NCBI GenBank assembly: GCA_964626355.1
Contig: CAZVCF010000001.1
Span: 26,936 to 61,235, forward strand
Origin: an uncultured Gammaproteobacteria bacterium
GTDB taxonomy: Bacteria; Patescibacteriota; Patescibacteriia; UBA2591; CAZVCF01
Length of the DNA stretch: 34,300 nucleotides
Direction: 5' to 3'
Shown: in pieces, positions 37 to 20,961 of the stretch
Position numbering within the stretch: the first letter of the stretch is position 1
Layout: each line of letters begins with the position of its first letter
The notes under the pieces: model-generated
What the model was told of the DNA's origin: nothing
Databases searched by the model: none
Seen by the model: the letters and a program-made list of their open reading frames with translations, nothing else
Translations under genes and position numbers: made by a program

Positions 37-972
37 TTATTGTCCTGTCGCCGCGCCCACTCCACACTTAATCGGATGCGTTGCGCAATAACCGACGACG
101 AAAATAATAATAAAAAAAATTAAGAGAATGCCCATAATAATCGCCATCCCAACGCAATACACAATCATCTCGGACAGCATCCCCATCATTTTAATTTTTA
201 ACCCTGGCGGTTCTGTTTGTGAAAGCGCTGGAAATAATTTTGATTTGAAACCGACTAAATTGCCAACGAGAAAACAGAGCGTCAGATAGAGCCATCCCCA
301 TATAAAAAACATTGCCCACGCCTGTTTTTTGATTTGATCACCGATTATTTTTGTAGCTTGTTCCTGCGGTTTCTGCTGATCTCCTTGCGCTTGCGTTGTT
401 TGTTTTCCTTCTTGCTTCTCCCCTTCTTTCTTTTCTCCTTTCGCTTCGCCACCACCTTTCTGTTTTCCTCCTTTATCGCCGTTTTCTTCGTCTTCACTTT
501 CGCTTTCTTCCTGACTCTCGCTTGATTCCTCTTCTTCTCCCTCTTCTTCCGCGCTTGTGTCGCGCGCTTCTTTCTTTTGCCCATACAATTGTTCATAAGT
601 TTCTCCGACTCCTTGCGCGTCCTGACCTTCTTCAAATCGTTGAAATTTCTCAAACGAACTTTCCTGTTTCGCCTCTCCTTCATCTTCATTTGTTTTAACG
701 CGCATTTGCATCTCCGGCAACTGACTCGCTTTAATCTCTTCTATCCCTTTAATTATAGGTTGTTTTTGTCTTTCTACCAAACGTTGCCGCGCTTTCATTT
801 TTTCACGCTCTAATGTTTCAAAAATCTGTTGTTCGTCATCAGACGGAACTTCGATAACATTTTTGTCGTTCATATTCTCGCTCCCCGCATCAATCGGTAA
901 ATCTTCTATAGACTTTCGATTCAAAGGCGACACGCCGTCTTTTGCTTTTTCTTTGTCTTGTTTTTCATCCAT
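37..972 (-). CDS. Hypothetical membrane protein with an acidic/lysine-rich low-complexity N-terminal region and a C-terminal 3-TM anchor; last visible gene of the T4SS-like operon
   Basis: ATG at 972, 311 aa. The N-terminal part includes EEEGEEEESSESQEESESEDEE and GEKKEGEKQEGK tracts. The C-terminal hydrophobic helices are AWAMFFIWGWLYLTLCFLVGNLVGF and MGMLSEMIVYCVGMAIIMGILLIFFIIIFVVGY. I recognise no family. Confidence 0.7.
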   Translation of the reverse strand: MDEKQDKEKAKDGVSPLNRKSIEDLPIDAGSENMNDKNVIEVPSDDEQQIFETLEREKMKARQRLVERQKQPIIKGIEEIKASQLPEMQMRVKTNEDEGEAKQESSFEKFQRFEEGQDAQGVGETYEQLYGQKKEARDTSAEEEGEEEESSESQEESESEDEENGDKGGKQKGGGEAKGEKKEGEKQEGKQTTQAQGDQQKPQEQATKIIGDQIKKQAWAMFFIWGWLYLTLCFLVGNLVGFKSKLFPALSQTEPPGLKIKMMGMLSEMIVYCVGMAIIMGILLIFFIIIFVVGYCATHPIKCGVGAATGQ

Positions 973-1006
973 TGCGTAAAATTATTTATCTGGTATCATA
1001 ACTTCG

Positions 1007-1090
1007 CCGTTGGGACGGAGCAGTTCGAGATCTCCTTAGTCAGGGAGGATTTCCGGGGTGCAACTCCCCGCGTCTCCACGGTGTTTTTTA
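1007..1090. other. Candidate structured RNA/DNA element (multi-stem junction closed by an 11-pair stem)
   Basis: 1007-1017 (ccgttgggacg) pairs with 1071-1081 (cgtctccacgg) with one mismatch and one G-U. Internal hairpins are ggag(1017-1020)/ctcc(1032-1035) and cgggg(1054-1058)/ccccg(1066-1070) with the 7-nt loop tgcaact. tgttttttа-like T-run follows on the + strand (tgtttttta at 1082-1090). It does not fit a canonical tRNA. Confidence 0.3.
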
Positions 1091-1104
1091 TCCACAGGCT
1101 GCTA

Positions 1105-1132
1105 TTGACAAAATAAATACTTATAGTATCAT
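1105..1132 (+). promoter_or_regulatory. Sigma70-like promoter candidate (TTGACA-16 nt-TATCAT), antisense to the operon
   Basis: ttgaca lies at 1105-1110 and tatcat at 1127-1132. It sits ~50 nt upstream of a + strand hairpin and intrinsic terminator. Confidence 0.35.
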
Positions 1133-1138
1133 TAAATT

Positions 1139-1210
1139 ATCCTGACTAAGGAAATCGAATTGCTTCGAGATTTCCAAAGGACCGCCCAAAAGGCGGTTTC
1201 TTTGTTTTAC
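1139..1210 (+). ncRNA. Candidate ~70-nt small RNA (promoter, stem-loop, rho-independent terminator)
   Basis: A 7-bp stem-loop joins ggaaatc (1150-1156) and gatttcc (1169-1175). It is followed by a terminator hairpin at 1181-1197 plus ttctttgtttt. No ORF is present. The call rests on sequence architecture only. Confidence 0.3.
1181..1210 (+). terminator. Intrinsic terminator-like hairpin with a T-tract, oriented for the + strand
   Basis: accgcc (1181-1186), loop caaaa, ggcggt (1192-1197), then ttctttgtttt. On the minus strand the trailing sequence is not T-rich. Confidence 0.5.
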
Positions 1211-1354
1211 AATTCACTTTGAATAACGAAATTCTGTCGAGGCATATGTCTTTTTGAACCATTGCGAGCGCGACTGGCGCGAGCACGAGGAATTTTTCAG
1301 CAGAAAAATATCCGTGTTCAAAAAGACGTATGCCGAGAGAAGGAATTTTGTTAT

Positions 1355-1927
1355 TCAAAATACTTCACCCTCTTGTATCGCGTCTGCCAACCACTTCCCC
1401 TCTATTTTTTTCAAAAGAACCGTTATTTTTTTATAGGATTCAGTTTTTCCGCTTGCGCTTTCTTCGGTAAGTCGAACAATCGCTATTGTAGACGCCGTTT
1501 CATTGTCGCTCATCTCAATTTGCAACGATACAACTTCGCCAAGTGAACTCATAAACCCTTGCGACGATTTGAGCGCAATAATTTTTTCTTCAAGCACATT
1601 TCTCATCTGTGCTGTCGCGCTCTCCTTCAATAATTTAAAATTCAATCCTTGATTATCGCTTGAATAACTATACCATCGTTCAATAAAACTGCGCGCCACA
1701 AGTTTCGCGGCGTCTTCCGTGGAATACTGCTGTTCCTGTTTCTTACGAACAAGCTTCGTTTGTCTTTGCGGCTGATTCGCCGTGATAATCGGCACATCTT
1801 TTTTTCCGCTTATCGCTGGAATTTCAACTTTTTTAGGCAAAAGAAAAAACCAAACGATCCATGCAATAAGGCCTATTGCAATAATAACGCCTATTGTCTT
1901 AATAATATTTTTAATTGAGCTATCCAC
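1355..1927 (-). CDS. Bitopic membrane protein with a probable NTF2-like ectodomain; VirB8/PrgL/TcpC-class candidate
   Basis: GTG start at 1927, 190 aa. The N-terminal TM is IIKTIGVIIAIGLIAWIVWFFLL. A ~130-aa alpha+beta domain follows, ending in the beta-rich IAIVRLTEESASGKTESYKKITVLLKKIEGKWLADAI. The architecture and its position next to VirB4 fit VirB8-like proteins. The family call is inference. Confidence 0.4.
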   Translation of the reverse strand: MDSSIKNIIKTIGVIIAIGLIAWIVWFFLLPKKVEIPAISGKKDVPIITANQPQRQTKLVRKKQEQQYSTEDAAKLVARSFIERWYSYSSDNQGLNFKLLKESATAQMRNVLEEKIIALKSSQGFMSSLGEVVSLQIEMSDNETASTIAIVRLTEESASGKTESYKKITVLLKKIEGKWLADAIQEGEVF

Positions 1928-2440: not shown

Positions 2441-4261
2441 TTAACTTTTCACTCCTTTTTGTTGCTCCTTCAGATGTTCCGCGAATTCTTTTTTCGCTTC
2501 TTCAACTTCCAAAAGCTGGCGAGGGTCCGTGGTAATTAACTGATCTTCCGCGTACGATGCCACCACGCGAATCGCCGCGTGTTTCGCGCCAGCGAAAAAT
2601 ATCCCTTCTCCAACACCACACTCCAAGAGCAAGAATCGCTCTCCTTCAGTAAGCATAAAGGTCTTTGCCACGCCATCGATCGCGGCGACGGATTGTTTCA
2701 ATAACATCTGCATCGCGCAATTCGTCACGATCGCGCGGCCATACGGATTATTCAAAAAGTCCTGCACGTCTTGTGTAATTGTCGTCACGCCTAAATAATA
2801 TTTTCTGCATCGTTTCACGAGCGCGAAAATAAATTTCGCGGATTCTTCGTATTGCATCAGCCACCATGCCTCATCAATCACTAAAATTCTTCTTTTTGTT
2901 TCTTGGCGCACCACGGTCCAAATGTAATTAACGATGGTATAAATCGCGACCGGACGCAACTCATCTTCCAAATCTCGCACGCTGAAAACAACTAATTGAT
3001 TCGCCATTTTTACATTTGTCGAATTATTGAGCAATCCGCCAAAAGTTCCTTTTGTGTATTTTGATAACCGCTCCATTAACGTTAGCCCGCCTTCCATTCC
3101 TGCAAGCACTTCTTCAAGATCGGACAATGTCGGCATCGTGACGTTTGTTAAATCAACGCCAGGCCCGATATCATGTTTCGCGTATGCTTCCAACAGCGCC
3201 CGATCAAGCAACGAATCTTCCATTGGCGTGAATTGCGGCACACCGCGCTCGTCCTTAACGCCAATCATTAATTTTAATAATCCTTTGAGTGTAATAACTG
3301 CTGAACGCACTACATCTTCAACTTTTATTTCTTTACTTTTCGTTCGTGGCAAATCAAACGGATTAATCTTACTTTCGGACGCAAGCGACACATTCACATA
3401 GGTTCCGCCGACCGCGTCGCATAAATGTTTATATTCTTTTTCCGGATCGATAACGATTACATCAGCGCCGAACATCAAGCTTCTCAAAATTTCGAGTTTT
3501 ACCGTATAACTTTTCCCCGCTCCGGAAGTCGCGAACACCACCATATTGCCATTCGGCATACTGAACCGATCAAAAATCACTAGACTGTTGTTGTGGCGAT
3601 TAATACCATATAAAATCCCTTCGTTCGAACTTAAATCAGCTGAAATAAATGGAAACGACGACGCGCACGGCGACGAATTAAGATTTGACGTGATGAATAA
3701 TTCATCTTTCGCAAACGGCAAGGCGGAAATAAATCCCTGTTCCGATTGATAGAGCGATCGGCGCGTATAAATTAATTTTGACGCGAACAATGATTCAACT
3801 TGATCAGTTACTGATTCAAGCTCTTTAAGCGAGTTTGCGTACGTGGTTACATATAACGCGAACTGAAAAAAATGTTCAACGCCAGTTGTTAAATCGTCGC
3901 GCAGTTTTTCGATATCACGCAACGCTGTTTCCTTTACCGGATCGCGCGGCATACTTTTTTCCTGATCTTCTGATATTTCAGCTTCAAGCGATCCAACACG
4001 ACGCTGTAATTGTTTCAAGACTACGGCCGCTTTTACCGGATAAAAATACATTGCAATATCAAGCTGATTACTAAAGTTAATCGCTGGCGCGAGCCATCCG
4101 ATGCCGATATAGCGCGGATACGCGGACACGAAAATTGTTCGCAAAAATTTACCGTCAAGTTCAATATACTGCGGTGTCACGCGCATCGCGCTCGGCGCGA
4201 TAATGTCATGTAAAGACGCGATTCCTTTTCGATATTTTTCCTCTGTGCTAATAACTTCCAT
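2441..4261 (-). CDS. virB4: VirB4/TrsE/TraE-family T4SS ATPase, C-terminal ~3/4 (middle domain plus P-loop NTPase)
   Basis: Walker A is FATSGAGKSYTVK (TSGAGKS = 3509-3529). Walker B is ILVIDEAW (2864-2887). The upstream conserved block is IIAPSAMRVTPQYIELDGKFLRTIFVSAYPRYIGIGWL. The ORF-track start at 4387 is TTG inside a repeat arm. A GTG at 4360 or the ATG at 4261 are alternatives, and I chose the ATG. Confidence 0.9.
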   Translation of the reverse strand: MEVISTEEKYRKGIASLHDIIAPSAMRVTPQYIELDGKFLRTIFVSAYPRYIGIGWLAPAINFSNQLDIAMYFYPVKAAVVLKQLQRRVGSLEAEISEDQEKSMPRDPVKETALRDIEKLRDDLTTGVEHFFQFALYVTTYANSLKELESVTDQVESLFASKLIYTRRSLYQSEQGFISALPFAKDELFITSNLNSSPCASSFPFISADLSSNEGILYGINRHNNSLVIFDRFSMPNGNMVVFATSGAGKSYTVKLEILRSLMFGADVIVIDPEKEYKHLCDAVGGTYVNVSLASESKINPFDLPRTKSKEIKVEDVVRSAVITLKGLLKLMIGVKDERGVPQFTPMEDSLLDRALLEAYAKHDIGPGVDLTNVTMPTLSDLEEVLAGMEGGLTLMERLSKYTKGTFGGLLNNSTNVKMANQLVVFSVRDLEDELRPVAIYTIVNYIWTVVRQETKRRILVIDEAWWLMQYEESAKFIFALVKRCRKYYLGVTTITQDVQDFLNNPYGRAIVTNCAMQMLLKQSVAAIDGVAKTFMLTEGERFLLLECGVGEGIFFAGAKHAAIRVVASYAEDQLITTDPRQLLEVEEAKKEFAEHLKEQQKGVKS

Positions 4262-4422
4262 TTGCGCGGATTCGGTCAACGCTTCCTTTTTCGGAGCTTC
4301 CGCTTCTTTTTTCTTTTGCGCCGCCTCTGCGCTCGCGAGTTGTGAAGGGTCGATAGCCACGTTCCAAATTAAAAATGTAAATATCAAAATGTAAAATATC
4401 TCCGATATATCCTCGTTCGTTC

Positions 4423-4450
4423 GGAAAGATAAAACATTTTTTATCTTTCC
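4423..4450. repeat. Perfect 12-bp stem / 4-nt loop hairpin inside the nested insert of element B
   Basis: ggaaagataaaa catt ttttatctttcc, verified base by base. Confidence 0.85.
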
Positions 4451-4486
4451 TCTCTTACTTCGGATATGACAATCTAAAATGATAAA

Positions 4487-4612
4487 ATTATTTTTGCCTT
4501 TACCAATAAGAATAATTGAAGCTATTTTTTAATAAACTCAATTAACCACAAAATTATATCATACGGTCTTTCTTAAATTCATTTTTAAATTTTGATTTGT
4601 CATTTTGATTTT
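4487..4612 (-). pseudogene. Internally deleted four-helix-bundle gene remnant
   Basis: The reverse complement of 4570-4612 (atgacaaatcaaaatttaaaaatgaatttaagaaagac) matches the 5' end of the intact gene (atggaaaatgacaatgcaaaatttaaaaatgaattcaagaaaagac). The reverse complement of 4487-4521 encodes ASIILIGKGKN*, against ASSILTLKGKK* in the intact copy. About 290 bp of the middle is missing. Confidence 0.7.
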
Positions 4613-4636
4613 TGATTTTTGCATTTTGAATTATTT

Positions 4637-5287
4637 CTATTCCATCCTCACTTTCTCTGCGTCTTCTAATTTTTGCGTATTCGCGATGACCGGATTAAAA
4701 CTCTCATATGCCAGTTCAATAAGACTTTGCGTATCAAGCGCAACACCCTTAATCCCCATTGCGTTAAGTTGCGACATCACATAGTCAACGCGCTTATAGA
4801 GATCGTTGCGAAATTTTTCAAAACGCTCTTTACTGATGTGGATTAACTGCGCGGCGGAAAAAAGATCGCCTAATCGCGCAAAAAATCCACCGCTATATTT
4901 GCCGCTCCCGGGCGTATACGGCACGACGATATAAAATTTCTTCACCATAATATCGCCAAGCTCAACAAGCTCGCGGACAAAATCGCGATAATCCGCCATC
5001 TGTATCGCCAGAAGATCGTTCTTCATTTGTTCTTGCTTTTTTTTCATTTCCTCAAGATACGGTTCAATATATAACTTGCGCGACTGCACAACAATCTCAA
5101 TTGGAAAATCAACTGAATTAAGAAAACGCACATACGAACTGATAATCGCTTCCTGCTCCTCTTCTGATTTTAACGAAAAATTGATTGACGACACCATAAT
5201 TACCGCGCGCAAACTCCCGTCCCGCATGACCATGCAGTCGTTTTTTATTTCAGAAATCGGAATATATTTTTGAGTTGAAGAAGGCAT
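4637..5287 (-). CDS. virB4: VirB4 N-terminal domain encoded as a separate ORF (split VirB4)
   Basis: ATG at 5287, 216 aa. STQKYIPISEIKNDCMVMRDGSLRAVIMVSSINFSLKSEEEQEAIISSYVRFLNSVDFPIEIVVQS follows the pattern of the extreme N-terminus of Gram-positive VirB4 proteins (Tn916 Orf16 / TcpF / PrgJ class), as recalled from memory. Confidence 0.65.
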   Translation of the reverse strand: MPSSTQKYIPISEIKNDCMVMRDGSLRAVIMVSSINFSLKSEEEQEAIISSYVRFLNSVDFPIEIVVQSRKLYIEPYLEEMKKKQEQMKNDLLAIQMADYRDFVRELVELGDIMVKKFYIVVPYTPGSGKYSGGFFARLGDLFSAAQLIHISKERFEKFRNDLYKRVDYVMSQLNAMGIKGVALDTQSLIELAYESFNPVIANTQKLEDAEKVRME

Positions 5288-5439: not shown

Positions 5440-5868
5440 TTATTTTTGATCTTGTTCTTCGTACGCTCCGCCGGTGTCAACGACTAATGATAATTTTGAC
5501 AATCGCGAAGTAGTTAATTGCGGTCTTTGAGGTGTCTTGTCTTCTTTTTTTTCATTACTATCTTTTATCTTCAGCGATACGATATTGAAATGTTCTCTTT
5601 GCCATATGCGCAAATTCGGTCGTTTGAATGTTTCCGCCATATTCAATAAAAAATAATGGAACGGCTTTCCGTTTACCTTGACAAACGCAAACAGAAGCGC
5701 GAGCGGTAGTATAAAAATACCTGATACGACGAAAAGAGTAAAATCTAAAATCTTATAATTCACAAAAAGAATGACAGCGGTCACGACCAAAATAATAAAT
5801 TGTCGCGGCGTTATTGGGCCGATAATTTTCGGTTCGATATTAATAAATTGCGGAACGATGAACTGCAC
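5440..5868 (-). CDS. PrgI-family / VirB3-like small membrane protein
   Basis: GTG start at 5868, 142 aa. The N-terminus MQFIVPQFINIEPKIIGPITPRQFIILV is followed by two TM helices (VVTAVILFVNYKIL, FVVSGIFILPLALLFAFV). It lies directly upstream of VirB4, as VirB3/PrgI genes do. Confidence 0.6.
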   Translation of the reverse strand: MQFIVPQFINIEPKIIGPITPRQFIILVVTAVILFVNYKILDFTLFVVSGIFILPLALLFAFVKVNGKPFHYFLLNMAETFKRPNLRIWQREHFNIVSLKIKDSNEKKEDKTPQRPQLTTSRLSKLSLVVDTGGAYEEQDQK

Positions 5869-6139: not shown

Positions 6140-8305
6140 TTATAGCTTTAGCTTCTTGTTTAGCGCCACGATTGAGCGGAATTCGTCGTAGGTCAGGGTT
6201 TGCGCGCCTGCAGCTTCTTTTCCTTTGATAATGTCTTGCGGCGATTTCAAATTCGCAAATGATTCGTTCATAATCGCGAGATACATTTGATAGAACGGCG
6301 ATTGTTTGAATGCTTGTATGCCCTTCGCCTTCTTCTCAAGGGAGTCTTCTCCCAATAGATTAATTTTATCTAAAATTTTTGAAGTTGCCTCATCGAAATT
6401 CGCATACTTGCGGATATCAGCAAGCGTGATTGACGACAACTCTTCCGCAATGCCATATATTTTTGTCTTCACTTTAATCTCAGCGACTTTGGGGCGGACA
6501 TCGATATCCGCATCGCTTATCGTCTCCTGTGCGCTTTTTACTGCTTGTCGTTGAATACTCGCTTCGTCGCTTCGGATGTCGGAGGTCGGATTTCGGAGGT
6601 CGGATTTCGGAGGTCGGATTTCGGACAACGGCGGCGCGATAAGCGTTTCTTGCATCGCCCCGTTTAATGCCGGAAGTGATAATTTTTGCATCTCACATAT
6701 AAACGGCCCGTGTTCAAAAAGACATTTTTTATACTCCAAGTCGTCCCTCGACTTGTCCCCCGAAGCCTTGGCGAAGGAGGATTCACTTGTCATACCATAT
6801 TTCTGAGGCGGCGCTATTTTTGCTTCAACGACAATTTCTTTCGACGATTCATTATCTGACGCAACCTGAATCGTTTTCTCTTGTTTCACCTCGCCGAAGT
6901 CTTGAATGGATGCGGACTTTGCCTCGCCGAAGCCTTCTTCTTTAGCGAAGGCAGACGTTGGCACCGTTTCCTGTTTTATTGTTTCTTGTGGCTGTGCGAC
7001 TTCTGGTTCATCATGTTTAATTCTTTCAAAAGATATTGGTTCGCCAATCGGCAAATTCTCTGGTGGCTCTCGCATAATTACTCCTTCTCGTCCGCGTAAA
7101 TCCGCGTCTTTTCTATCTGCGTTGATCCGCGTCTCCTCTTGTCCGCGTTGGTCTGCGTCTTCTTTGTCCGCGTTTATCTGCGTTTCCTCTTCTTTTTCGC
7201 GCGGCGGAGAAACGACGACTGTTTCACGCATTAACGGGATCGCGGACACCGTTGCCACAGACGGCTGATATTCCGATACGGCTTTTGAACCAATTTTTTT
7301 TGATTTCAAAAATAAAATAATTTCTGTTATTTTTTCTGGAGATGTTTTTTTGCCATCGTTCGCAAGCGAACGCTCAATCGCGTCTTTGAGCGCGATTGCA
7401 TCGCGCGCGCCACCAAGATAACTCTCAATAATCGCCGCGTATTTTTGAACTGCGTCTACTGACAACGAAAGATTAAATTTGTCATTCATCTCCTGCGTGA
7501 TTTGCAGAGGAACTATTTTTATTTTTGATAAAGCGCCGACTTCCTCTTTCTGTTTCTCTATTTCTTTAATCTCATTTTCATCAAGAAAATCGCCGAATTC
7601 ATTTGTCATCCTTTCAAGAGACGCTGACTCACGCTGACTGCTGGGGACGCTGACCAACGCTGACTGCTGGGGACGCTCTTCGTCGTTTTCTTTATCCGCG
7701 TAAATCCGCGTTTCCTCTTGTCCGCGTAAATCCGCGTTCTTCTTATCTGCGTTTATCTGCGTTTCCTGCAATGTCTCTTCTAAAAGCGCGTTAAGCTCTT
7801 CATCAAGGGACGCTGATTCACGTCTCCCGTCTGCGTTAGTCTCCGTTTCAGTCTGCGTTGGCCCGCGCTCTTCGTTTGCTTGTTGATAATTGATTGTTGA
7901 TTGTTGATAGTTAGCAATCGCTTGTTTCTCCTCTTCCAACATTTTTCTGATTTCGTCTTCAGGAAGCCATTCCTTAATCAACTGCTTGCATTCCGGTAGC
8001 CATTTTTCGAAATCCTTACGCAACACAAACAAAATTTTCGCCGCAAGTTGTTTCGCCTCTGCCTCGTTGATTTTCAAATAATACACAAAATAACTCGGCA
8101 TTTCGCGAGGAAGATCACCATTATACAAAATCCATTGAATAATAGTTTTAATATGCGCGCTTTTCACTATATCGTACATAGCAGTCATTTGCGCGAATCG
8201 TCTTTCTGTCGAATAACGATCAACTAATGCGATTAATTCTTCTGTCGCGCTATCTTCTTTTTCTTCAAAATTGTCCGATATAATTTTATAATTTTTGCTA
8301 TCCAT
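6140..8305 (-). CDS. Hypothetical soluble 721-aa protein with globular N- and C-terminal regions joined by a mosaic of repeat-derived low-complexity segments
   Basis: ATG at 8305, with an open frame of 2.1 kb. There is no TM helix or signal peptide. The middle contains INADKxxADLRGQEETRI modules (twice), SDIRSD/SDLRNP, QQSTINYQQ and FAKASGDKS/FGEAKSAS segments, encoded by repeats that are non-coding elsewhere in the window. Confidence 0.6.
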   Translation of the reverse strand: MDSKNYKIISDNFEEKEDSATEELIALVDRYSTERRFAQMTAMYDIVKSAHIKTIIQWILYNGDLPREMPSYFVYYLKINEAEAKQLAAKILFVLRKDFEKWLPECKQLIKEWLPEDEIRKMLEEEKQAIANYQQSTINYQQANEERGPTQTETETNADGRRESASLDEELNALLEETLQETQINADKKNADLRGQEETRIYADKENDEERPQQSALVSVPSSQRESASLERMTNEFGDFLDENEIKEIEKQKEEVGALSKIKIVPLQITQEMNDKFNLSLSVDAVQKYAAIIESYLGGARDAIALKDAIERSLANDGKKTSPEKITEIILFLKSKKIGSKAVSEYQPSVATVSAIPLMRETVVVSPPREKEEETQINADKEDADQRGQEETRINADRKDADLRGREGVIMREPPENLPIGEPISFERIKHDEPEVAQPQETIKQETVPTSAFAKEEGFGEAKSASIQDFGEVKQEKTIQVASDNESSKEIVVEAKIAPPQKYGMTSESSFAKASGDKSRDDLEYKKCLFEHGPFICEMQKLSLPALNGAMQETLIAPPLSEIRPPKSDLRNPTSDIRSDEASIQRQAVKSAQETISDADIDVRPKVAEIKVKTKIYGIAEELSSITLADIRKYANFDEATSKILDKINLLGEDSLEKKAKGIQAFKQSPFYQMYLAIMNESFANLKSPQDIIKGKEAAGAQTLTYDEFRSIVALNKKLKL
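6572..6626. repeat. Tandem 14-nt repeat tcggatttcggagg (~3.9 copies) inside the 721-aa CDS
   Basis: Units are at 6572-6585 (one substitution), 6586-6599, 6600-6613 and 6614-6626 (partial). The related motif tcggatttcg also occurs in the intergenic element at 31053-31085. Confidence 0.9.
7091..7187. repeat. 'ccgcgtaaatccgcg / atctgcgtt' repeat block, copy 1, in frame in the 721-aa CDS
   Basis: tccgcgtaaatccgcgtc...atctgcgttgatccgcgtc...gtccgcgtttatctgcgtttcc encodes ETQINADKEDADQRGQEETRINADRKDADLRG. Confidence 0.85.
7694..7766. repeat. 'ccgcgtaaatccgcg / atctgcgtt' repeat block, copy 2, in frame in the 721-aa CDS
   Basis: atccgcgtaaatccgcgtttcctcttgtccgcgtaaatccgcgttcttcttatctgcgtttatctgcgtttcc encodes ETQINADKKNADLRGQEETRIYADK. 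Confidence 0.85.
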
Positions 8306-14700: not shown

Positions 14701-17126
14701 GTGTCGCTTCCGACCCATGTGTAGTAATTCTTGCACGTCGCGCCAACAGGATTGACCGGCGGCGGCACAATCGCTCCAGTTGCGTCAAGTTTCACACACT
14801 GACGAATCTGCGTATAATATTCTCGTCCCTCGCCGCCTTTCGCCACCTCGGACAAATTGGTAAATTCTGAACAACCGACCGCGTTCGCGCTGCAACTTTC
14901 CGCGCTCTTTGGAATAAAATTCAATAAATCTCTTCCCTTGTTAAAGTTGCTCGGCATTTCTTTGAATGTTTCTAATCCAACGCACTCCGACGGACATTGA
15001 TCGTTATCGGTCACAATCGCGGGAATTTTTTTGTCCGGAAAATTTTGATCATAATACGCGTCACATCCAACTTGTTGATAGGAACATTGCGTGAGATATT
15101 TTTCACATTCAGGAGAATCGTTGTCAGAGCTGCCGTCGTAGCATTTCATCCACTCCGGAGCTTTGCGCAAATACGCGCTGTTCGCAAAACCATATTTTTT
15201 GAATGGCGTCGCGCGCGTTCCCGCTTCAAATTGAATATTATCAATTGATAACGCGCCGCTTCCGGAAAATACGTCAGATATAAAAATCTGTAAATCCTCT
15301 GAATTATTGAGGTCAGAAAAACTATTGAACGGATGCGCGAATGAAAGACTATAACGTTGCCAATCGGATTGAGATGCTATTATCGTTGAAACGACCACAA
15401 CGCCTGACCCGGCATAATCTGCTCCGCGCAACGAAATCGTATGATTATTTATATCACTATTTTTCGCGTCAAAAGAAATTGTATAGGTTCCAACTGGGAG
15501 AACAATTGGATCTTCCGGACGAATTCCTGATCCGGACGCGCTTATAAAAACATTTACATTTTCTCCGTTTGCGGTGCTAGTCGCGCTGAACGAAACTCCT
15601 GAACCAATTGTTTGCCATCCTTTCACTTCATTCGCGCCAACAACGCCATCTCTGTTCGCATCAACCCAATCATTCAATTCCGGATTTCGCGCGAGATTCG
15701 TTCCTAAACCGCTCTTTTCACGCGAGAACCACGTGCATCCTTCCGCAGTTGGTTTGCACAATTCCGCGCGCGCGTTAAAAAATTTCGCGTTCAATGGATT
15801 TGTTGTCGTGTTCGCAACTGTTTCGGTTGAAGTGACTGAATAATTAAAACAATCTCTTCTGCACTCACTCGAGCCTCCTTTTCCTTCTCTTAATTCGCAA
15901 AGATCATTCCCACATTCCTCAAGGGGAGGATTATCTATTGGACCTTCCTCTTTCCAAACCTCCATAATATTTGCAACCGTTGTTACGTTACTTATTGAAA
16001 GACCCGGTTTCTTGCACTTCCACGCGCCGGTTGTGATATCCTTATCATATTCCTGGCACAACCATTGACATCCGGACGAGTCCTGATCGCATTGCGCAGA
16101 ATCCAAACTATTCGCCAAATAAAAAAACTTTTTATCGTCTTTAAGACGGGTGTATTTGCCGCAACTTTCGTATTGCGTTTCGCACGCGTCGCCGTCAAAC
16201 CGCCACCGATTCAATTCACGCGTGCAATATCCCCACGCGACGCATTTGCCATTTTCATCCTCGCGCACGCAATCTTGCGTATCAACGCACGTTTCATTTC
16301 GATCTTTTGATTCCGGCGATTGCGGCGAACGGCTGTACGCGGTCAATTCGCATCGCAAAGGCGGTAATTTTAATACCCAGCTCGGATCAACTAAATTGCA
16401 AAATGGGCTTGTGTCATCAATAGTGCCACATTTTCCATCCGGACCGTATTGATAAAAACCATTGACAATTTCCCGCAACTTCACTTTATCAGTCCCCCGG
16501 ATGAGCGGATCATTCCCAATACGACGCGCAGCTATTTCCAATCCAAGAGGCACCACGCGCGCGCGGCGCAATTTTTTTATATTGCTCAATGAATAACGGG
16601 TTGTATAATCTGCAACACCATCAACCGTATCTCTCGTTGGCGCGCCAACGAACCAATCACCATGCAGATATCCTTTCTCAATCGCGCGCTTAATAGTGAG
16701 ATGCTCTTCAATCGCCTGACGAAAACCGGTGTCAATAACACAGTTGTTCACTGTCGCGTATTTTGCTCCTTGCGGAGGGCACAGCGAAAATTCAGTCAGT
16801 AAATCAACCGATCCTGCTTGTTTCAGCTCAACCAATTGCACGCCCGGCGATGTTTGTGGTTCGCTTGGAATAAAATCTTTCTCCTCCTGCGCACTTGATT
16901 CTTCTGACAACGCACTTTCCTCCGCACTGCCTTCAACACCGCCCAGACTTTGGCCTCCGCCAATTGATAGTCCACCTCCCGGAATCAATTGATTCTGGCA
17001 CGTATTCGTCGGATCATACGGACAAGGGTCTCTCGCGGGACGAGATTGGGCAAAAACAACACCGCCGGCAATCAAAATGATTCCGAAGAATATAAATAAT
17101 ATTATTTTTTTTCGAGAAAACAACAT
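11742..17126 (-). CDS. Giant (~1794 aa) secreted cysteine-rich protein with two CBM4_9-like beta-sandwich regions and C-terminal Myxococcus-type cysteine-rich repeats
   Basis: ATG at 17126 gives the signal peptide MLFSRKKIILFIFFGIILIAGGVVFAQS; the ORF-track TTG at 17144 lies in a repeat arm. There are at least 10 copies of C-x6-C-x2-[FYW] (CSANAVGCSEF, CSASAVGCEKY, CSEQKVGCEAF, CTALNMGCSRF, CGSEKTGCQTF and others). The jelly-roll-like segments are ~15219-15700 (NLARNPELNDW...NIQFEAG) and ~13875-14298 (ILYDNFENGSF...FFDNIFLQE). CGNDIIEPGEDCDD and CSNGIVEAYEQCDDGD are encoded at 11889-12032. Confidence 0.85.
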   Translation of the reverse strand: MLFSRKKIILFIFFGIILIAGGVVFAQSRPARDPCPYDPTNTCQNQLIPGGGLSIGGGQSLGGVEGSAEESALSEESSAQEEKDFIPSEPQTSPGVQLVELKQAGSVDLLTEFSLCPPQGAKYATVNNCVIDTGFRQAIEEHLTIKRAIEKGYLHGDWFVGAPTRDTVDGVADYTTRYSLSNIKKLRRARVVPLGLEIAARRIGNDPLIRGTDKVKLREIVNGFYQYGPDGKCGTIDDTSPFCNLVDPSWVLKLPPLRCELTAYSRSPQSPESKDRNETCVDTQDCVREDENGKCVAWGYCTRELNRWRFDGDACETQYESCGKYTRLKDDKKFFYLANSLDSAQCDQDSSGCQWLCQEYDKDITTGAWKCKKPGLSISNVTTVANIMEVWKEEGPIDNPPLEECGNDLCELREGKGGSSECRRDCFNYSVTSTETVANTTTNPLNAKFFNARAELCKPTAEGCTWFSREKSGLGTNLARNPELNDWVDANRDGVVGANEVKGWQTIGSGVSFSATSTANGENVNVFISASGSGIRPEDPIVLPVGTYTISFDAKNSDINNHTISLRGADYAGSGVVVVSTIIASQSDWQRYSLSFAHPFNSFSDLNNSEDLQIFISDVFSGSGALSIDNIQFEAGTRATPFKKYGFANSAYLRKAPEWMKCYDGSSDNDSPECEKYLTQCSYQQVGCDAYYDQNFPDKKIPAIVTDNDQCPSECVGLETFKEMPSNFNKGRDLLNFIPKSAESCSANAVGCSEFTNLSEVAKGGEGREYYTQIRQCVKLDATGAIVPPPVNPVGATCKNYYTWVGSDTSGYQLKRYYLSENSASGGPKTVPNPRVDLGNCASHDDALVNPNCKEFYDSKGGIYYRVFENTISCSADCSAYRKTEPAIYDLPTTTCVSINGVMNNGACEKINFMAIAAQGKTCSASAVGCEKYQGNAGANVRTILYDNFENGSFVPYSGNTIEMSTESIYFGGHSIMVLRTGSAPYVATITRPIGSLVRRERSYALSAWINVPDPVSTNIAATAFIGGIRWGAPVTGAIGWQKIDFGTFYLNRDFDQNSELTIRVEYFGGGTPTVFFDNIFLQEVNQNFYLISDTWNTPDSCKPEPNFLGCRSYTNRAKQTKTLKSFTNLCSEQKVGCEAFINTQNTLTPFSESVDKGLYNNAPLTIATDTIEYYVYTPEKNDFKAKQCTALNMGCSRFGMPSLGSNGEATTYRNVYVKDTPNRYRDNSILCGSEKTGCQTFEDSSGGKVYFKDPVKTCEYKTNIAVVLNGVTSAKISGWFKRGTEEACDFENNPVSPSYTWGNESTKYAAAVCPSSKEKCSLFEVPDPTDPDNLSKLNRQKYYYLNNARLKRGECQGKVSAAEDCVLVIDTSLKDIESNVVKYYKTAATYQKSKNATPPYSLIDPVALQPGEMSNLNDANVIFQARKDRTCGEWIACTAYEQVYDLNGQYRNKCVSISQGRRGYFENDPNNLVLVIHATSSASALHQQEYIKRDVTFTGLDYSGYSLMNIKPIESLYQRTSDRRLFSYGDGSIGISSLGLDLATTTPQICKAFPEKDSPFKQIIGGSVEEGGLGYVNVNVCNSTSTSLEQCQCNYKKVAVGQSQIFYLNDNESSNRFRAKTCINGRPDMVGRPCSTDGDCGIDLSNNPGKCEVSAFIDLKEKIYRGQKGYCLEYDTSRNGEIAECITWLPTGAAAPICGNDIIEPGEDCDDSSASCPRFNVARSCKQNVCSNGIVEAYEQCDDGDLLDPEGSAGAPLKYQGGGSCYTYPRTAGGPCGNAPDPNWDPQNERYID

Positions 17127-17129
17127 CTT

Positions 17130-17473
17130 AAATTCAAAATGCAAAAATCAAAATGCAAAATGACAATGTAAAATGCAAAATAATCAATAAAAATTTTATA
17201 TTTTCAATTTTTATTAAATTTTTCCGATTTCCTTTTAAAAAATCGTGTATCTTTGATTGTTTCGCATCGGGACAATAAATCAATTTTCGATAATTCTAAT
17301 TTTAGTTTTAAGTTGTAGTTTGATTCGTGCTTTAATTATTATAAAGGGTGGTAGTTCGTATTTTGCGCTCGCTTGAAAACAAAAAAAGTGAAATCAAGCG
17401 AAGCCTTCTGTTTATTTAAATTTTATCATTTAATCATTGTCATTTTCCATTTTGATATTTACATTTTACATTT
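17130..17473 (-). mobile_element. Decayed IVS-like inverted-repeat element (element D) between the 777-aa and giant genes
   Basis: The left arm at 17130-17185 is aaattcaaaatgcaaaaatcaaaatgcaaaatgacaatgtaaaatgcaaaataatc. The right arm at 17414-17473 is ...atcattgtcattttccattttgatatttacattttacattt. The arms are largely reverse-complementary (atcaaaatgNaaaatgacaatg core). The interior has no long ORF. Confidence 0.55.
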
Positions 17474-19805
17474 AATTGTCGCACAACCCATCTCCATCCG
17501 TGTCTCCTCCATACGGGCCGCACAAATCTGACGGTTGCGTTGGCGTAGTGCCGCCATTGCTCTTTAATCCATCTTCAACGCCTCCTCCGAAATCTCCACT
17601 CTCTGAACCGTCTTCATTAAACGTTTTACCAGCACTACTTCCTCCGAAACGGCCTCCCTGTGACCCCTGAACGCTTCCGCCGCAATCAGACGGACACGAT
17701 AATACTGTTTCTCCCGCGCCGCAATATTGATCACCGCATTGCTCGCTTGCCCCACTCGAATTCTCCGTCTTTCCAAGTTGTTCACGTAGATCTTTGGTAA
17801 AATTCTGCTCTTGTTCCGATGGATTTTCTTGTTTGTTTAATTCATTGATAGCTTTCTCAAGTAATTTTTTCATTAATGTACTCATAAAAATTCCGAATGC
17901 GTCCGCGACCGCGGATCCAGTCATCACCAATGGTCCTTTAAGCGGTCCTTTCATTTCCCCTAACTCTTTTTCAACATACGCGGCAGGAGTTTTCACTCTT
18001 CCGGATATATTTGACGTCAAACTATTTAATCCTCCTTCAATTTGTTTCATCTTTTCAGCAACGTCTTTTTCAACTCCCATTTTTTTGAGCAACTCACTTT
18101 CAACGCCAAGTTGCGCGCTAATCGGATTACTTCCCTGTTCAAACGATTTTGTTAAATCGTCAAGACTTCCCGCTTCAGGAGGAATCGACATACTGGCAAA
18201 ATCCGTTTTCTCCGCTGACGTCAACAATCCCGCTTGCCAGTCATTCAATTTCAAAACATATTCATTAATTTTATCTAATACTTTTCTGTAATGGATGAAT
18301 GCGTTCGCTTTATTTTGCTGACATCCGATCGTATTGCCGCTTGTGCACGCCGCACTCGCGTCGCGCGTGCATTGTGGCTCTGTGAAATTATTAAAATCTG
18401 GATAGTTAATCGGACCGACGCTTTCATCTTTAAACATCAAATTATTATAAACGAACGTTCTGCACTCATTAACATTACAAAATGAGGCAATGTCGCCTTT
18501 TTGTCTGCATACTGCGAACGAAGAGGTAAGCGCAAGAAATGTATCTTGCATATCTTTTCCAACCCCCTTAAGAATGGGAATCACTAACGACGTCAGTTTA
18601 TCTTGTAATTTTTTATTATTTAATGCATTAGCAGCTGCGGTTTGATGAGCAATTCCTAATTCGCTCACCTGTTGCCTAAGCTCCTCCTCTAGCTCAACTT
18701 TATCTTTCTTCAATTTTTCAACACCTGCATTCATTTCTTCATACCTATTCGCATAAGTACACCCCTCTTGGGTATATGAGCATTTCCTCGGTTGATTTTT
18801 CCAATGTGATTGTACCGCGCCACTCATACTATCAAAACCATCAATTTTCGCTGTAATATCTTCTAAAGATTTTGAGTATTTTTCTTTCTGCTCTTTAATC
18901 TTGCGCTCAACACGCGCTCTATTTTTTTTATCGGTTTTCAAAGCCCTATTTAATAAATCCTCATATTTCTCATGCGATGCCTCTATTCTCGCGCCAAATC
19001 CACCAACAATACCTTCTCGTATTTTAGGCCCTGCCGCCACCCCATACGGAACGTAAAATGGCCCGTACACTGCGTCAGTTGTTTCATTAAATGAAGCAAG
19101 AAAATACTCGCCATACAGTCTGCTTTTCATATCCCACGGCAAAAGAGTATTGGTAAGAATCGCAGTTTTCAAATCTTTTTTATAACCGCCGGCCGGACCT
19201 TCGGTTAATCCAAAACTCGCTTTGAAAGTAAATTTAGCGGCTGAATTGCGCGCGTTCTCCCATATCTTTGTAAATGAACACTTATACAATTCCGGCGCGG
19301 GTTTTGGCGCGGTCGTGTCAAGATTGATAAGCATCTTGAATTTAATACTTGGATCAATCGGATCGCAGAGATTAAAATTTTTGAAGCCAGACACAGAACT
19401 AAACGTATTTTGAAGCAGTTCCCCGCCAACCGAATCTGCAAGTTTGGTAAAATAATGCGGATCTGATAAAAACATCGGCTTCTGTCCCTTGCCGCCGGAC
19501 GCGACCCATTCGGCGCTCTGTTGCGCGGCTTGATTGAGAAAAATAGTCAAACCGTTGCGATACGCGACCGCAACCCCTTCTTTCATCACAAATTCCGCTA
19601 CCCGTTTTGCCACATCCCAGACGAACTGCCCTACCTTAGTAACCGTATCAACGATGATACCACCAACCGCTCCGGGATCAAAAGTAATAAACTGCGCCTG
19701 CGCGGGTTTCGGCGCGGCGAATAAACCAAAAACGAAAAAAAACAACATCATCGAAACGATCGTTCGACGCATTTTTAAATTTTGATTTTTGTGGTTGAAT
19801 CTCAT
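17472..19805 (-). CDS. Secreted 777-aa protein with a coiled-coil-rich middle and a C-terminal Cys-knot and DxDxDG motifs
   Basis: ATG at 19805, with an alternative ATG at 19772. The signal peptide is MRRTIVSMMLFFFVFGLFAAPKPAQAQ. The C-terminus contains EQCGDQYCGAGETVLSCPSDCGG and DLCGPYGGDTDGDGLCDN. I recognise no family. Confidence 0.75.
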   Translation of the reverse strand: MRFNHKNQNLKMRRTIVSMMLFFFVFGLFAAPKPAQAQFITFDPGAVGGIIVDTVTKVGQFVWDVAKRVAEFVMKEGVAVAYRNGLTIFLNQAAQQSAEWVASGGKGQKPMFLSDPHYFTKLADSVGGELLQNTFSSVSGFKNFNLCDPIDPSIKFKMLINLDTTAPKPAPELYKCSFTKIWENARNSAAKFTFKASFGLTEGPAGGYKKDLKTAILTNTLLPWDMKSRLYGEYFLASFNETTDAVYGPFYVPYGVAAGPKIREGIVGGFGARIEASHEKYEDLLNRALKTDKKNRARVERKIKEQKEKYSKSLEDITAKIDGFDSMSGAVQSHWKNQPRKCSYTQEGCTYANRYEEMNAGVEKLKKDKVELEEELRQQVSELGIAHQTAAANALNNKKLQDKLTSLVIPILKGVGKDMQDTFLALTSSFAVCRQKGDIASFCNVNECRTFVYNNLMFKDESVGPINYPDFNNFTEPQCTRDASAACTSGNTIGCQQNKANAFIHYRKVLDKINEYVLKLNDWQAGLLTSAEKTDFASMSIPPEAGSLDDLTKSFEQGSNPISAQLGVESELLKKMGVEKDVAEKMKQIEGGLNSLTSNISGRVKTPAAYVEKELGEMKGPLKGPLVMTGSAVADAFGIFMSTLMKKLLEKAINELNKQENPSEQEQNFTKDLREQLGKTENSSGASEQCGDQYCGAGETVLSCPSDCGGSVQGSQGGRFGGSSAGKTFNEDGSESGDFGGGVEDGLKSNGGTTPTQPSDLCGPYGGDTDGDGLCDN

Positions 19806-19869
19806 AAATTTCTAATCCTATTTTTATAAATTCCGCGCACCGATTTTATAAAATTCCAAATTACAAGCA

Positions 19870-19906
19870 CCCGCCCGAACGACTGAATACCGTTCAGTCG
19901 GGCGGG
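19870..19906. other. GC-rich bulged hairpin in the 777-aa gene upstream region
   Basis: cccgccc (19870-19876) pairs with gggcggg (19900-19906), and gactgaa (19881-19887) pairs with ttcagtc (19893-19899). A 4-nt bulge separates the two stems. Confidence 0.6.
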
Positions 19907-20010
19907 CCAAATCCCAAACAAATTCAAAACTCAAAATCCTAATGACCAAAACGTTTTAGAATTGAAAAATTTTAGTTATTTATTCTATCTCTTTTTATAT
20001 TCCTCTGCTT

Positions 20011-20125
20011 GAGAGAGAAATATATTTTTACAACATCGGGTTGGCAGTGGGAACATTAGTGTAGCAGTCGACGAAGTCGACTGTATCATAAAGAATAGGC
20101 GGTTGTAAAAATATATTTCTCTCTT
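20011..20125. other. 115-nt element closed by a perfect 23-bp inverted repeat, starting 3 nt after the 277-aa gene stop
   Basis: 20012-20034 (agagagaaatatatttttacaac) is the exact reverse complement of 20102-20124. The interior 67 nt contains an 8-bp hairpin, cagtcgac gaa gtcgactg (20065-20083). No T-tract follows on either strand. Confidence 0.8.
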
Positions 20126-20127
20126 CC

Positions 20128-20961
20128 CTACTTTTTCTCTTCCTCCGCGATAAACTTATTCACTAACAATTGCAAATTTGCATCATCAATCGAGCCTAAT
20201 ATTTCCTTGTTAAAACCTTGCTGAATTAATAATTGCCGTATTTGCGCCGGTGGCATTTGTTTTAATAATTGCAATGCTTGCTTGGAAACAGCAGTTGAAG
20301 TTGATTGTTGATTGTTGATTGTTGATTGTTGATTTCCAATACCAATTCCCTGCGACAATAATGCCGCAGGATCAATTCCTGTTTCTGCTTTAGTATTATT
20401 ATACAAGTTTACAAGCGTTTGGTCATCGAGGTTTTGCACAAGATCGCGCGGCGCGCCCGCGGCAATAAGCGCGTCGCGAATTTTTTGAAGCAATGCCGAC
20501 GACGGTCGTTGAACGAGCGTTTCGTCTTTTATTTCTTGCTGTAAATTGTTATCTGTCTGTTGTTGATTGTTGATCGTCGATCGTTGATCGTTAACTGTTG
20601 ATCCAACGTCTCCAAGCGTATCGCCCTCTTTTCGCGGCGCGCTGTTTTTATCCAACGGATTACTCTTCGCGGTAATTTCATCTTTGTCGTTTGTTCCATC
20701 GCCGTCTGAATCTTGCAAAAAAACGCTGGTTCCATAAATATACCGTTCCTGATAATCATCAATACTATCGCCATCCGTATCGGTCGCGCGCAATTTTTTA
20801 ATCAAATCTTCTTGAGTTGGTTGTACGATTTTCGCAATTTCTTGAAGCAAAAAAGGAGCGCGAATAGCGCCCTTCAATTTAACAGAACTCAAAAAAATAA
20901 CGCCTCCTCCGAAGAGGATAAGAAAAATCAATAATCCAATTTTTTGTTTATTTTTCCCCAT
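20128..20961 (-). CDS. N-terminally anchored protein with thrombospondin-type-3-like DxDxDG calcium-binding motifs and Q/N/T-rich repeat tracts
   Basis: ATG at 20961, 277 aa. The TM is IGLLIFLILFGGGVIFLSS. The calcium-binding-like stretch is TDTDGDSIDDYQERYIYGTSVFLQDSDGDGTNDKDE. QQSTINNQQSTS is encoded by a heptamer microsatellite. The gene overlaps the rsmA 3' end by 34 nt. Confidence 0.7.
   Translation of the reverse strand: MGKNKQKIGLLIFLILFGGGVIFLSSVKLKGAIRAPFLLQEIAKIVQPTQEDLIKKLRATDTDGDSIDDYQERYIYGTSVFLQDSDGDGTNDKDEITAKSNPLDKNSAPRKEGDTLGDVGSTVNDQRSTINNQQQTDNNLQQEIKDETLVQRPSSALLQKIRDALIAAGAPRDLVQNLDDQTLVNLYNNTKAETGIDPAALLSQGIGIGNQQSTINNQQSTSTAVSKQALQLLKQMPPAQIRQLLIQQGFNKEILGSIDDANLQLLVNKFIAEEEKK
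20294..20334. repeat. Heptanucleotide microsatellite (ttgattg; ~5 copies plus a variant unit) inside the 277-aa CDS
   Basis: gttgaag ttgattg ttgattg ttgattg ttgattg ttgatt, read on the minus strand as GNQQSTINNQQSTS with a 21-nt / 7-aa period. Confidence 0.9.

Follow-up and report, generated by a model that had tools for sequence, protein, structure and literature searches.

A Patescibacteria-type type IV secretion system locus headed by genes for a TSP3-motif protein and a split giant cysteine-rich exoprotein

The 34,300-nucleotide stretch of contig CAZVCF010000001.1 analyzed here (positions 26,936 to 61,235; hereafter the window) carries a cluster of genes related to type IV secretion systems (T4SSs), headed by genes for exported proteins. 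Calling of open reading frames (ORFs) placed on its minus strand, from 21779 down to 37, the 16S rRNA dimethyltransferase gene rsmA (ksgA; 20928-21779; Pfam RrnaAD, E = 6e-46) followed by 11 cluster ORFs, which encode in order a TSP3-motif protein, two fragments of a giant exported protein, a VirB6/TrbL-like protein, an acidic protein, a PrgI/VirB3-like protein, a TrsD-like protein, a VirB4 ATPase, a small four-helix-bundle protein, a VirB8/PrgL-like protein and a charged membrane protein. The genes are co-oriented and their spacing is tight, some gaps measuring only 7-50 nt, and the 3' end of rsmA overlaps the first cluster gene by 34 nt. A first-pass annotation of the bare sequence had counted ten genes; each minus-strand ORF that it listed exists where it was placed, and the eleventh, which it missed, is a 123-aa gene at 1984-2355. 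The window ends 36 nt past the last cluster gene. Its G+C content is ~40%, with no step at either end of the cluster, GC skew is negative in all 1-kb bins without a sign change, and neither tRNA genes nor Rfam matches (at the gathering threshold or at E ≤ 0.5) were found in it. Promoter and terminator scanning did not inform operon structure, because terminator-like sites were no more numerous than expected from shuffling and the excess of promoter-like sites marked no particular site. The same DNA is present in a second NCBI assembly, GCA_016186335.1 (contig JACPLV010000092.1, “Parcubacteria group bacterium”), ending 230 nt past VirB4. The nearest relatives (Falkow-, Uhr-, Magasanik- and Kuenenbacteria) are taken to be members of GTDB class ABY1.

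For comparison, 80 species-level loci from GTDB genomes were used, nearly all titled as Patescibacteria-group or placeholder-named metagenome-assembled genomes; individual related loci are cited by label (L002, L007, L087-L092 and so on). The ATPase gene of the window (2441-4387; maximal ORF 648 aa; database gene call from 4261, 606 aa) matched P-loop_TraG (E = 1.7e-28) together with AAA_10 and DUF87 in Pfam, and its product passed NCBIfam model NF045971 for VirB4-like conjugal transfer ATPases of the CD1110 family (327 bits against a cutoff of 325, over model positions 180-729 of 752). The Walker A (GAGKS, 3509-3523) and Walker B (VIDEAW, 2864-2881) motifs are intact and fall inside the ranges assigned to them in the first-pass annotation. 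All 8,000 candidates scored in the VirB4 search were at E ≤ 1e-10; the best 119 homologues after the window's own were 64-75% identical and ~606-718 aa long, and every one with a named source was from Patescibacteria/Parcubacteria or unclassified. By this identity ranking, the ATPase appears to group with the VirB4s of Patescibacteria. The 216-aa product of 4637-5287 is TrsD-like (NCBIfam TrsD, E = 8e-7; precomputed PF26593 TraC-like match) and resembles a stand-alone VirB4 N-terminal domain, covering positions 1-118 of the CD1110 VirB4 model and 103-232 of VirB4_plasma; because it covers the N-terminal part of the model that the ATPase also matches, the two ORFs together correspond to one VirB4. 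The earlier description of VirB4 as two ORFs is right in that both are there, and needs correcting in that they form a conserved pair of TrsD-like and ATPase genes, found in 75 and 77 of the 80 loci, respectively. A TrsD-like N-domain separate from its ATPase is, to judge from the loci compared, the norm in this clade and not a broken gene. The 142-aa protein encoded immediately upstream (5440-5868), with two hydrophobic, transmembrane (TM) segments, matched PF12666 PrgI at 33.5 bits, above the gathering cutoff of 27, and is the VirB3 counterpart; PrgI was present in 72 loci, and PrgI, TrsD and VirB4 were consecutive in 69 of 70. In one relative (L088, GCA_016783845.1, 25286-28781), the VirB4 product is at least 1303 aa long and carries an intein (Intein_splicing plus LAGLIDADG_3).

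The 190-aa protein encoded at 1355-1927 is bitopic, an N-terminal TM segment preceding an NTF2-like domain. Its AlphaFold2 model (103 sequences from an exhaustive representative search, 107 homologues) reached a predicted local distance difference test (pLDDT) score of 91.2 and has three helices packed on a four-stranded sheet. Foldseek against the PDB ranked the VirB8 homologue CagV first (E = 2.8e-5, TM 0.70) and also returned PrgL, DotI, an IcmL-like protein and pIP501 TraH, mixed with similarly scoring generic NTF2 folds. Comparison by hhalign gave PrgL as the sole match among pCF10 proteins (90.4% probability, E = 1.4e-6; 84.6% with an independent alignment). Since generic NTF2 folds score alike, the VirB8/PrgL-like identity is carried by the profile match and by gene position: an ORF of ~180-230 aa lies directly after VirB4 in 74 loci, with an N-terminal hydrophobic segment in all 8 for which hydrophobicity was printed. 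Sequence-only scanning of the family gave weak matches (NTF2_YvbJ in 5 of 75 members, TcpC in 1 of 75), and a profile search against the PDB returned TM-helix noise only. The 1109-aa protein (8321-11650; maximal ORF 1172 aa, to 11839) has seven hydrophobic segments within its N-terminal ~400 aa, the sole conserved part, which was recognized in 47 of the 80 loci. TrbL was matched in 8 of 43 members of this family (best E = 1.1e-5), the L002 homologue carries PF19590 TrbL_3, and the PDB held no match to the window's protein. It is probably an “extended VirB6”, the VirB6 call being weak but consistent. The extended VirB6 proteins of the Rickettsiales Rvh system (PMC12857230) likewise join a polytopic TrbL/VirB6-like region to a large hydrophilic C-terminal domain; here, in contrast, the hydrophilic tail is ~750 aa long, highly charged and variable, unconserved even among close relatives, and TrbL homology is weakly detectable. 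Thus, of the Gram-positive-type (MPF_FATA-like) VirB3/4/6/8 core claimed in the first-pass annotation, VirB4, PrgI/VirB3 and the VirB8-like protein stand by profile or structure, whereas VirB6 falls below the TrbL cutoff.

Two further cluster proteins recur in the clade. The acidic 721-aa protein (6140-8305), which lacks a TM segment, combines a variable, repeat-rich body with a C-terminal domain of ~130 aa (about 6140-6538), the only conserved part. This domain was found in 67 of the 80 loci, where the VirB6-like gene and PrgI flank it without exception, and had no relative in Pfam, the PDB or pCF10; on these sequence comparisons the protein is a clade-specific component of the T4SS locus. 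Tandem 25-nt and 14-nt DNA repeats (7091-7190, 7684-7767 and 6572-6625) encode reiterated “INADK.DADLRGQEE” and “SDIR/SDLR” peptides in its body, and account for the mosaic look of the protein. The charged 311-aa protein (37-972) has a long charged N-terminal region and two to three C-terminal TM segments (hydrophobic at 218-237 and 262-303), and is homologous to the gene after the VirB8-like gene in relatives (L014, E = 8.5e-10; L007, 7.8e-8; L006, 1e-4), which marks it as a second conserved component apparently specific to the clade. The N-terminal hydrophobic segments and TM counts across the cluster fit the earlier description. In the closest relatives, the gene after the 311-aa homologue encodes a signal-peptide-bearing PF18895 T4SS_pilin (VirB2-like) protein with a Cys-rich C-terminal extension, 1.2-1.7 kb past VirB4, followed by a ~430-aa bitopic protein, radA and recG. 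Contigs retrieved for this organism (~1.1 kb, by exact protein) break at a repeat at window position ~1, and a metagenome scan for sequence beyond the window edge found nothing. The absence of a pilin noted in the first-pass annotation is therefore probably an effect of the window edge and would not hold for the organism. Its term “minimal” also understated the cluster, whose conserved extras comprise the 721-aa C-domain and the charged 3-TM protein, plus the pilin and the ~430-aa protein in relatives. Spacers 973-1354 and 19806-20127 contained no convincing ORF and no conserved sequence. The former (382 nt, between the VirB8-like and 311-aa genes) has a normal G+C of 0.42, against the A/T-rich, repeat-filled gaps elsewhere, with no Rfam match and no similarity to related loci; the homologues of its two flanking genes are almost contiguous in relatives.

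At the head of the cluster, the 277-aa protein (20128-20961) is the first gene product of a conserved block. It has an N-terminal TM or signal anchor (hydrophobic residues 5-30) and TSP3-type Ca-binding DxDxDG motifs, and its homologues lie directly upstream of the giant gene in L087-L089 (tblastn E from 7e-16 to 9e-34); TSP3_bac is annotated on these genes in L087-L089 and L091. The anchored TSP3-motif protein of the first-pass annotation is borne out as to the hydrophobic segment and the homologues, and less so as to the motif, since PF18884 TSP3_bac scored 21.4 bits, below the cutoff of 25. The next two ORFs encode exported proteins of 777 aa (17472-19805) and 1794 aa (11742-17126; maximal ORF 1800 aa, to 17144). 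Both are rich in Cys, as had been claimed: the 1794-aa protein contains 76 residues (4.2%) and the 777-aa protein 16 (2.1%), whereas Cys makes up 0-1.3% of the remaining cluster proteins. They had been read as two secreted proteins. Residues ~10-220 and ~500-690 of the 777-aa protein, aligned by its N-terminal segment, match residues ~1-220 and ~300-550 of single giants of 2,400-3,100 aa in relatives (E down to 1e-33), and alignment of the 1794-aa protein starts at its own residue ~85-105 and at residue ~500-560 of the relatives' giants; because they are collinear with a single giant, the two are the N- and C-terminal halves of one ancestral gene. Each half here has its own signal-like N-terminus (hydrophobic segment 12-35 in the 777-aa protein). 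The 1794-aa half contains modules like the carbohydrate-binding module (CBM) family CBM_4_9 (E = 0.0014) and a C-terminal Cys-rich repeat (DUF4215, E = 0.012).

Thirty-seven homologues of the giant were retrieved, plus one match limited to the C-terminal Cys-rich repeat; those with names are from Patescibacteria/Parcubacteria or plain “bacterium”. They are 1,369-3,116 aa long, contain 3.3-5.5% Cys and share 26-38% identity; most carry PF02018 (CBM_4_9) and a few dockerin, LamG or Hint domains (homologue P0122 has Hint/intein-type domains). Where the N-terminus is complete, it contains a hydrophobic segment, and none of the 38 retrieved sequences has a C-terminal TM segment or an LPXTG motif. 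The model of the 777-aa protein is all-helical and poor (pLDDT 51). A VirB5-like tip protein was considered for this N-domain on the strength of a weak DUF4141 match and was rejected: the match occurred in 1 of 15 family members, the pLDDT was 51 and the PDB profile search was empty.

The order of the block is well kept. In L087-L091 it runs rsmA, TSP3, giant, VirB6-like, a gene of 403-642 aa, PrgI, TrsD, VirB4 and a gene of ~190-220 aa. The RrnaAD gene lies upstream of the TSP3 gene in L087-L092, with one or two small ORFs between them in L089 and L092; the 10-kb flank of L002 stops within the giant, so that there the order could be followed only from the giant onward. In L092, Fic, class I aminoacyl-tRNA synthetase and methyltransferase genes stand between the giant gene and the large ORF after it, which is 1583 aa long, has no Pfam match and is VirB6-like by position only. 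Upstream of rsmA, some lineages have a LysM-hydrolase gene and leuS, and L090 and L091 have prfA and glycosyltransferases instead, while the block persists. Loci counted as evaluable when they had a VirB6-like gene preceded by 1.5 kb or more of sequence. Of 41 such loci, 21 have a giant homologue just upstream of that gene, and 23 have there an ORF that is 450 aa or longer and contains 2% Cys or more; the 10-kb flank limit makes these counts lower bounds. From the opposite direction, all seven giant homologues inspected are at T4SS loci, six of them adjoining the VirB6-like gene, the seventh being L092, whose T4SS genes were not confirmed within the locus. The linkage to a giant Cys-rich secreted protein pointed out in the first-pass annotation is thus conserved.

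The cluster sits among housekeeping genes, as noted at first pass: rsmA, leuS, purF and valS in the window, and in relatives rsmA upstream and radA, recG, tyrS and a ComF-like gene downstream, a synteny kept across species. No relaxase was found among the window proteins scanned or in the Pfam lists of the ~20-kb flanks of L002 and L087-L092 (oriT was not searched). The window and the same seven flanks likewise contain no coupling protein (VirD4/TcpA/FtsK-like; the rest of the genome was not covered), T4SS-DNA_transf and TraD matches being sub-threshold P-loop matches inside VirB4 only, and no integrase (att repeats were not specifically searched). The absence of all three, first remarked on for the window, thus extends to its relatives, and because of it the cluster is not regarded as an integrative conjugative element (ICE). 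It is very probably the known T4SS of Patescibacteria. Quiñonero-Coronel et al. (2025, Microb Genom; PMC12102498) described a Patescibacteria-specific VirB4 clade, sister to MPF_FATA, in which TrsD is the most abundant partner, VirB3/PrgI, VirB6 and VirB2-like pilins are present, VirB8 matches are rare and nearly all from ABY1, relaxases are very few, coupling protein genes are usually far from virB4, and the virB4 neighborhood contains KsgA (abundant), dnaA or, in ABY1, comF/recG/radA; no PrgB-like adhesin was detected (PMC12102498). In Southlakia epibionticum, epibiotic growth requires a T4SS (SEML1_0006-0019), which has no coupling protein or relaxase, and its pilin array (Wang et al. 2023, Cell; PMC10633639), and a 2025 review restates this essentiality (PMC12857230). 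The window locus shares with these systems a chromosomal location, the lack of a relaxase, a VirB4 close to those of Patescibacteria, a separate TrsD-like gene by virB4, PrgI/VirB3, VirB8 and probably VirB6, a KsgA (RsmA) or radA/recG/comF neighborhood and, to judge from its relatives, a nearby VirB2-like pilin gene. It differs in having at its head a giant exported protein, a feature conserved in roughly half of the related species, in the VirB8-like gene that comes after virB4 in 74 loci, and in that the giant is split in this genome. The novelty implied by the first-pass annotation accordingly shrinks: relaxase-less chromosomal T4SSs of Patescibacteria were already published in PMC12102498, and their essentiality in PMC10633639.

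Among better-known systems, the closest parallels are in pCF10 (Prg/Pcf, MPF_FATA), CTn2 CD1110 and pGO1 TrsD, with which the locus shares a CD1110-family VirB4, a PrgI-family VirB3, a PrgL-homologous VirB8 and a pGO1-style TrsD protein. The collinear order of surface proteins, VirB6-like, VirB3, VirB4 and VirB8 recalls pCF10, where (according to its annotation) adhesins are followed by PrgH-I-J-K-L. Unlike pCF10, the window locus lacks a coupling protein (PcfC), a relaxase (PcfG), accessory factors and a PrgK-type hydrolase between VirB4 and VirB8; its VirB6-like protein is about four times as long as PrgH and does not match it; a VirB2-like pilin, absent from Gram-positive systems, is encoded in its relatives; and it is chromosomal and vertically inherited. 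Its surface proteins have no LPXTG motif and are unrelated to PrgA, PrgB and PrgC, so that the analogy covers operon position, export signal and binding modules only.

Several gaps in the operon are occupied by inserted sequence. An A/T-rich repeat family of ~50-75 nt (core AAAATCAAAATGACAATGCAAAATTTAAAAAT; 13 matches against ~1 expected) forms inverted pairs there, with copies at 1-45, 1932-1990/2321-2378, 4359-4499/4568-4640, 5867-5945/6041-6113, 17123-17200/17422-17484 and 25477-25534. One pair (~57-nt, I14), in the element 1932-2378, encloses the intact 123-aa gene, and the other pairs look like decayed copies. The 123-aa protein belongs to the four-helix-bundle family of 23S rRNA intervening-sequence (IVS) proteins (PF05635, E = 2e-16; TIGR02436, E = 1e-20); its gene is an insertion and no part of the T4SS. 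The same gene lies between inverted repeats of 20-66 nt, at varying operon positions, in 7 of 7 loci checked (L007, L015, L019, L020, L057, L069 and L078), the repeats being ~345-420 nt apart in six of them and 670 nt apart for the longest pair in L057. From this common layout at different positions in seven species, the element would therefore be a small mobile cassette, IVS-like in its behavior, with intergenic sites as its targets. Between the giant halves, the 345-nt gap (G+C 0.24) is filled by an element with ~55-nt terminal inverted repeats (17123-17484; families D2-D4, pair I22), and the RNA fold of 17120-17490 closes with a long stem (z = -7.6). The decayed element in the TrsD-VirB4 spacer (4359-4640; families D2, D3, D5 and D10; gap G+C 0.23) holds the start of a reading frame like that of the IVS protein, and L020 has an intact gene for this protein at the same spot. 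Assemblies break at the A/T-rich repeats. Sequence of this family also lies in frame in leuS (22885-25491), at 24309-24385 (encoding KIQNAKIKNQNDNLKFKN) with a weaker copy at 24053-24105, in the editing-domain region; the 868-aa ORF is intact, and the insertion appears to be tolerated in this housekeeping enzyme. A different, 7-nt-periodic repeat, (TTGATTG)n, is common to three unrelated genes: that of the 721-aa protein (7870-7922), the TSP3 gene (20295-20347 and 20536-20602) and leuS (23187-23225 and 23781-23833). Read in frame, it gives Q/N-rich stretches of STINNQQ/INYQQ type.

Beyond rsmA, a 184-aa PaaX_M/Cas2-like protein (22014-22568, minus strand; E 9e-17) is encoded between rsmA and leuS, bracketed by 45-nt inverted repeats (21877-21921/22604-22648). 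L087-L089 lack the gene at this site, L057 has two homologues flanking its T4SS region, and the gene is possibly another small mobile cassette. A 231-aa ORF without a Pfam match (25639-26334, minus strand) contains an 87-nt tandem duplication (25726-25809/25813-25896) that by eye encodes ribonuclease-inhibitor-like leucine-rich repeats. Upstream of leuS and divergent from it, a plus-strand gene (26387-27712) encodes a 441-aa protein in which two LysM domains are combined with a CHAP domain; a LysM-CHAP or LysM-M23 gene occupies the same position in L087, L088, L089 and L092 and not in L090 and L091. LysM/M23-containing VirB1 candidates have been reported (PMC12102498), and this protein may serve the system as its VirB1-type cell-wall hydrolase, yet its gene tracks leuS rather than the T4SS block.

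Taken together, we read the locus as a chromosomal, vertically inherited T4SS of the Patescibacteria clade with a surface module at its head, and put the probability of this reading as a whole at roughly 70%. That the giant is a dedicated part of the T4SS we rate at somewhat short of an even chance. We put forward tentatively, as possible rather than probable, that in ABY1-like Patescibacteria the TSP3 protein and the giant are a dedicated extracellular adhesin or contact module of the T4SS, binding host glycans and working with the Cys-rich-tailed VirB2-like pilin. Both proteins would leave the cell via Sec and not through the T4SS, and would form a disulfide-stabilized, Ca- and glycan-binding surface module. 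Such a module might hold the host cell, by analogy with PrgA/PrgB/PrgC, which are encoded ahead of the pCF10 channel genes, while the VirB4-powered channel and the VirB2-like pilus would exchange macromolecules or nutrients with the host cell that carries the epibiont. A host-contact or exchange machine had been suggested at first pass as well, and that suggestion still stands at the level of inference. A number of observations weigh against this picture. In about half of the evaluable loci the 10-kb flank contains no giant, and the conserved adjacency includes the unrelated housekeeping gene rsmA, so that synteny alone is no proof of coupling between giant and T4SS. The giant has no relative among PDB sequences and no detectable similarity to PrgB or another known T4SS adhesin (N-domain hhalign against pCF10 proteins), and its gene, being split here, may be decaying in this lineage. 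The pilin gene was seen in relatives only, and not in this organism. The VirB6-like protein scored 18.9-20.2 bits against PF04610 TrbL, below the cutoff of 25.9, and its profile matched pCF10 PrgH with a probability of 0.5% (hhalign).

In the strongest competing explanation, the TSP3 protein and the giant have a general role at the cell surface, as glycan-binding adhesins or S-layer-like proteins, and adjoin the T4SS genes by inherited gene order only. We consider this somewhat unlikely. Their Sec-type N-termini mean that the T4SS is not needed for their export, and the presence of the clearly unrelated rsmA in the block, the three unrelated genes that part the giant from the next large gene in L092, and the loci, about half, with no giant within reach are all as this explanation would have it. 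On the other hand, the adjacency of giant and T4SS survives changes of the surrounding genes, all seven inspected homologues are at the T4SS locus (with the reservation already made for L092), and the genes share one orientation, some lying only 7-50 nt apart. The giant also evolves far faster than the core (26-38% against 64-75% identity), which could signal independence from it, although fast evolution is expected of a host-contact protein; and the T4SS operon of pCF10 is headed by adhesin genes too.

A second alternative, which we regard as quite unlikely, is a competence-type T4SS working inward to take up DNA, like ComB of Helicobacter pylori or Ced of Sulfolobales, which would supply nucleotides or DNA to a cell unable to make its own, while the giant and the pilin capture DNA or hold the donor. 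These systems are candidate functional analogues, being VirB4-based, without a relaxase and not mobile; they differ in having no specific sequence relation to the locus beyond the VirB4 ATPase fold, ComB being a diderm VirB2-10 set and Ced using unrelated membrane proteins. Without a relaxase or coupling protein, export of processed DNA is unlikely, and relatives have radA, recG and a ComF-like (DZR_2 plus Pribosyltran) gene after the block, in keeping with the comF/recG/radA co-localization in ABY1 (PMC12102498) and with an uptake function already raised in print (PMC11665869). However, radA and recG are housekeeping genes whose adjacency to the block may be inherited synteny, and Pfam and NCBIfam scans detected no DNA-binding domain among the cluster proteins. 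The weak matches of VirB4 to the CedB and CedD models, at 46 and 23 bits against cutoffs of 700 and 600, reflect the common ATPase fold. In Southlakia, comEC-dependent competence is dispensable and the T4SS essential (PMC12857230), so the two are separable, though uptake may still run through the T4SS.

That the cluster is instead a decaying integrated conjugative element which has lost its relaxase, coupling protein and integrase is scarcely credible: the conjugation-type Gram-positive VirB4, PrgI and PrgL-like genes, the several repeat-element insertions and the split giant gene would suit it, but VirB4 is strongly conserved over hundreds of species and has intact Walker motifs, no core ORF is disrupted and PrgI, TrsD and VirB4 keep their order from species to species, the housekeeping neighbors are the same in distant relatives without a compositional discontinuity, and T4SS genes are essential in a cultured relative (PMC10633639).

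For the preferred reading, a clade-specific T4SS with a surface module at its head, the T4SS itself is already published, and the conserved block of rsmA, TSP3, giant Cys-rich CBM protein and VirB6-like gene is a modestly new detail, not found in the papers searched. No giant or Cys-rich, CBM or TSP3 protein is mentioned as part of the locus in PMC12102498 or PMC10633639 (“cysteine” occurs in PMC12102498 only in a CHAP context), the review PMC12857230 is likewise silent on a giant or Cys-rich protein there, and a full-text literature search found no paper linking giant Cys-rich proteins to T4SSs of the Candidate Phyla Radiation, an absence that is no proof of the link being unpublished. The Patescibacteria T4SS is the first T4SS reported to be essential for growth of its own bearer. 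For one large class, the locus adds to this a gene order that is fixed between rsmA and the VirB8-like gene, an almost universal VirB8/PrgL homologue after virB4, and a conserved, fast-evolving giant exoprotein predicted to bind glycans. If the proposed contact role is true, the TSP3/giant module fills the published “no adhesin detected” gap and points to a determinant of host range. Were the giant a neighbor only, the locus would be an ordinary instance of a published system; if it is a contact factor, it would offer a concrete handle on host recognition by uncultured epibionts.

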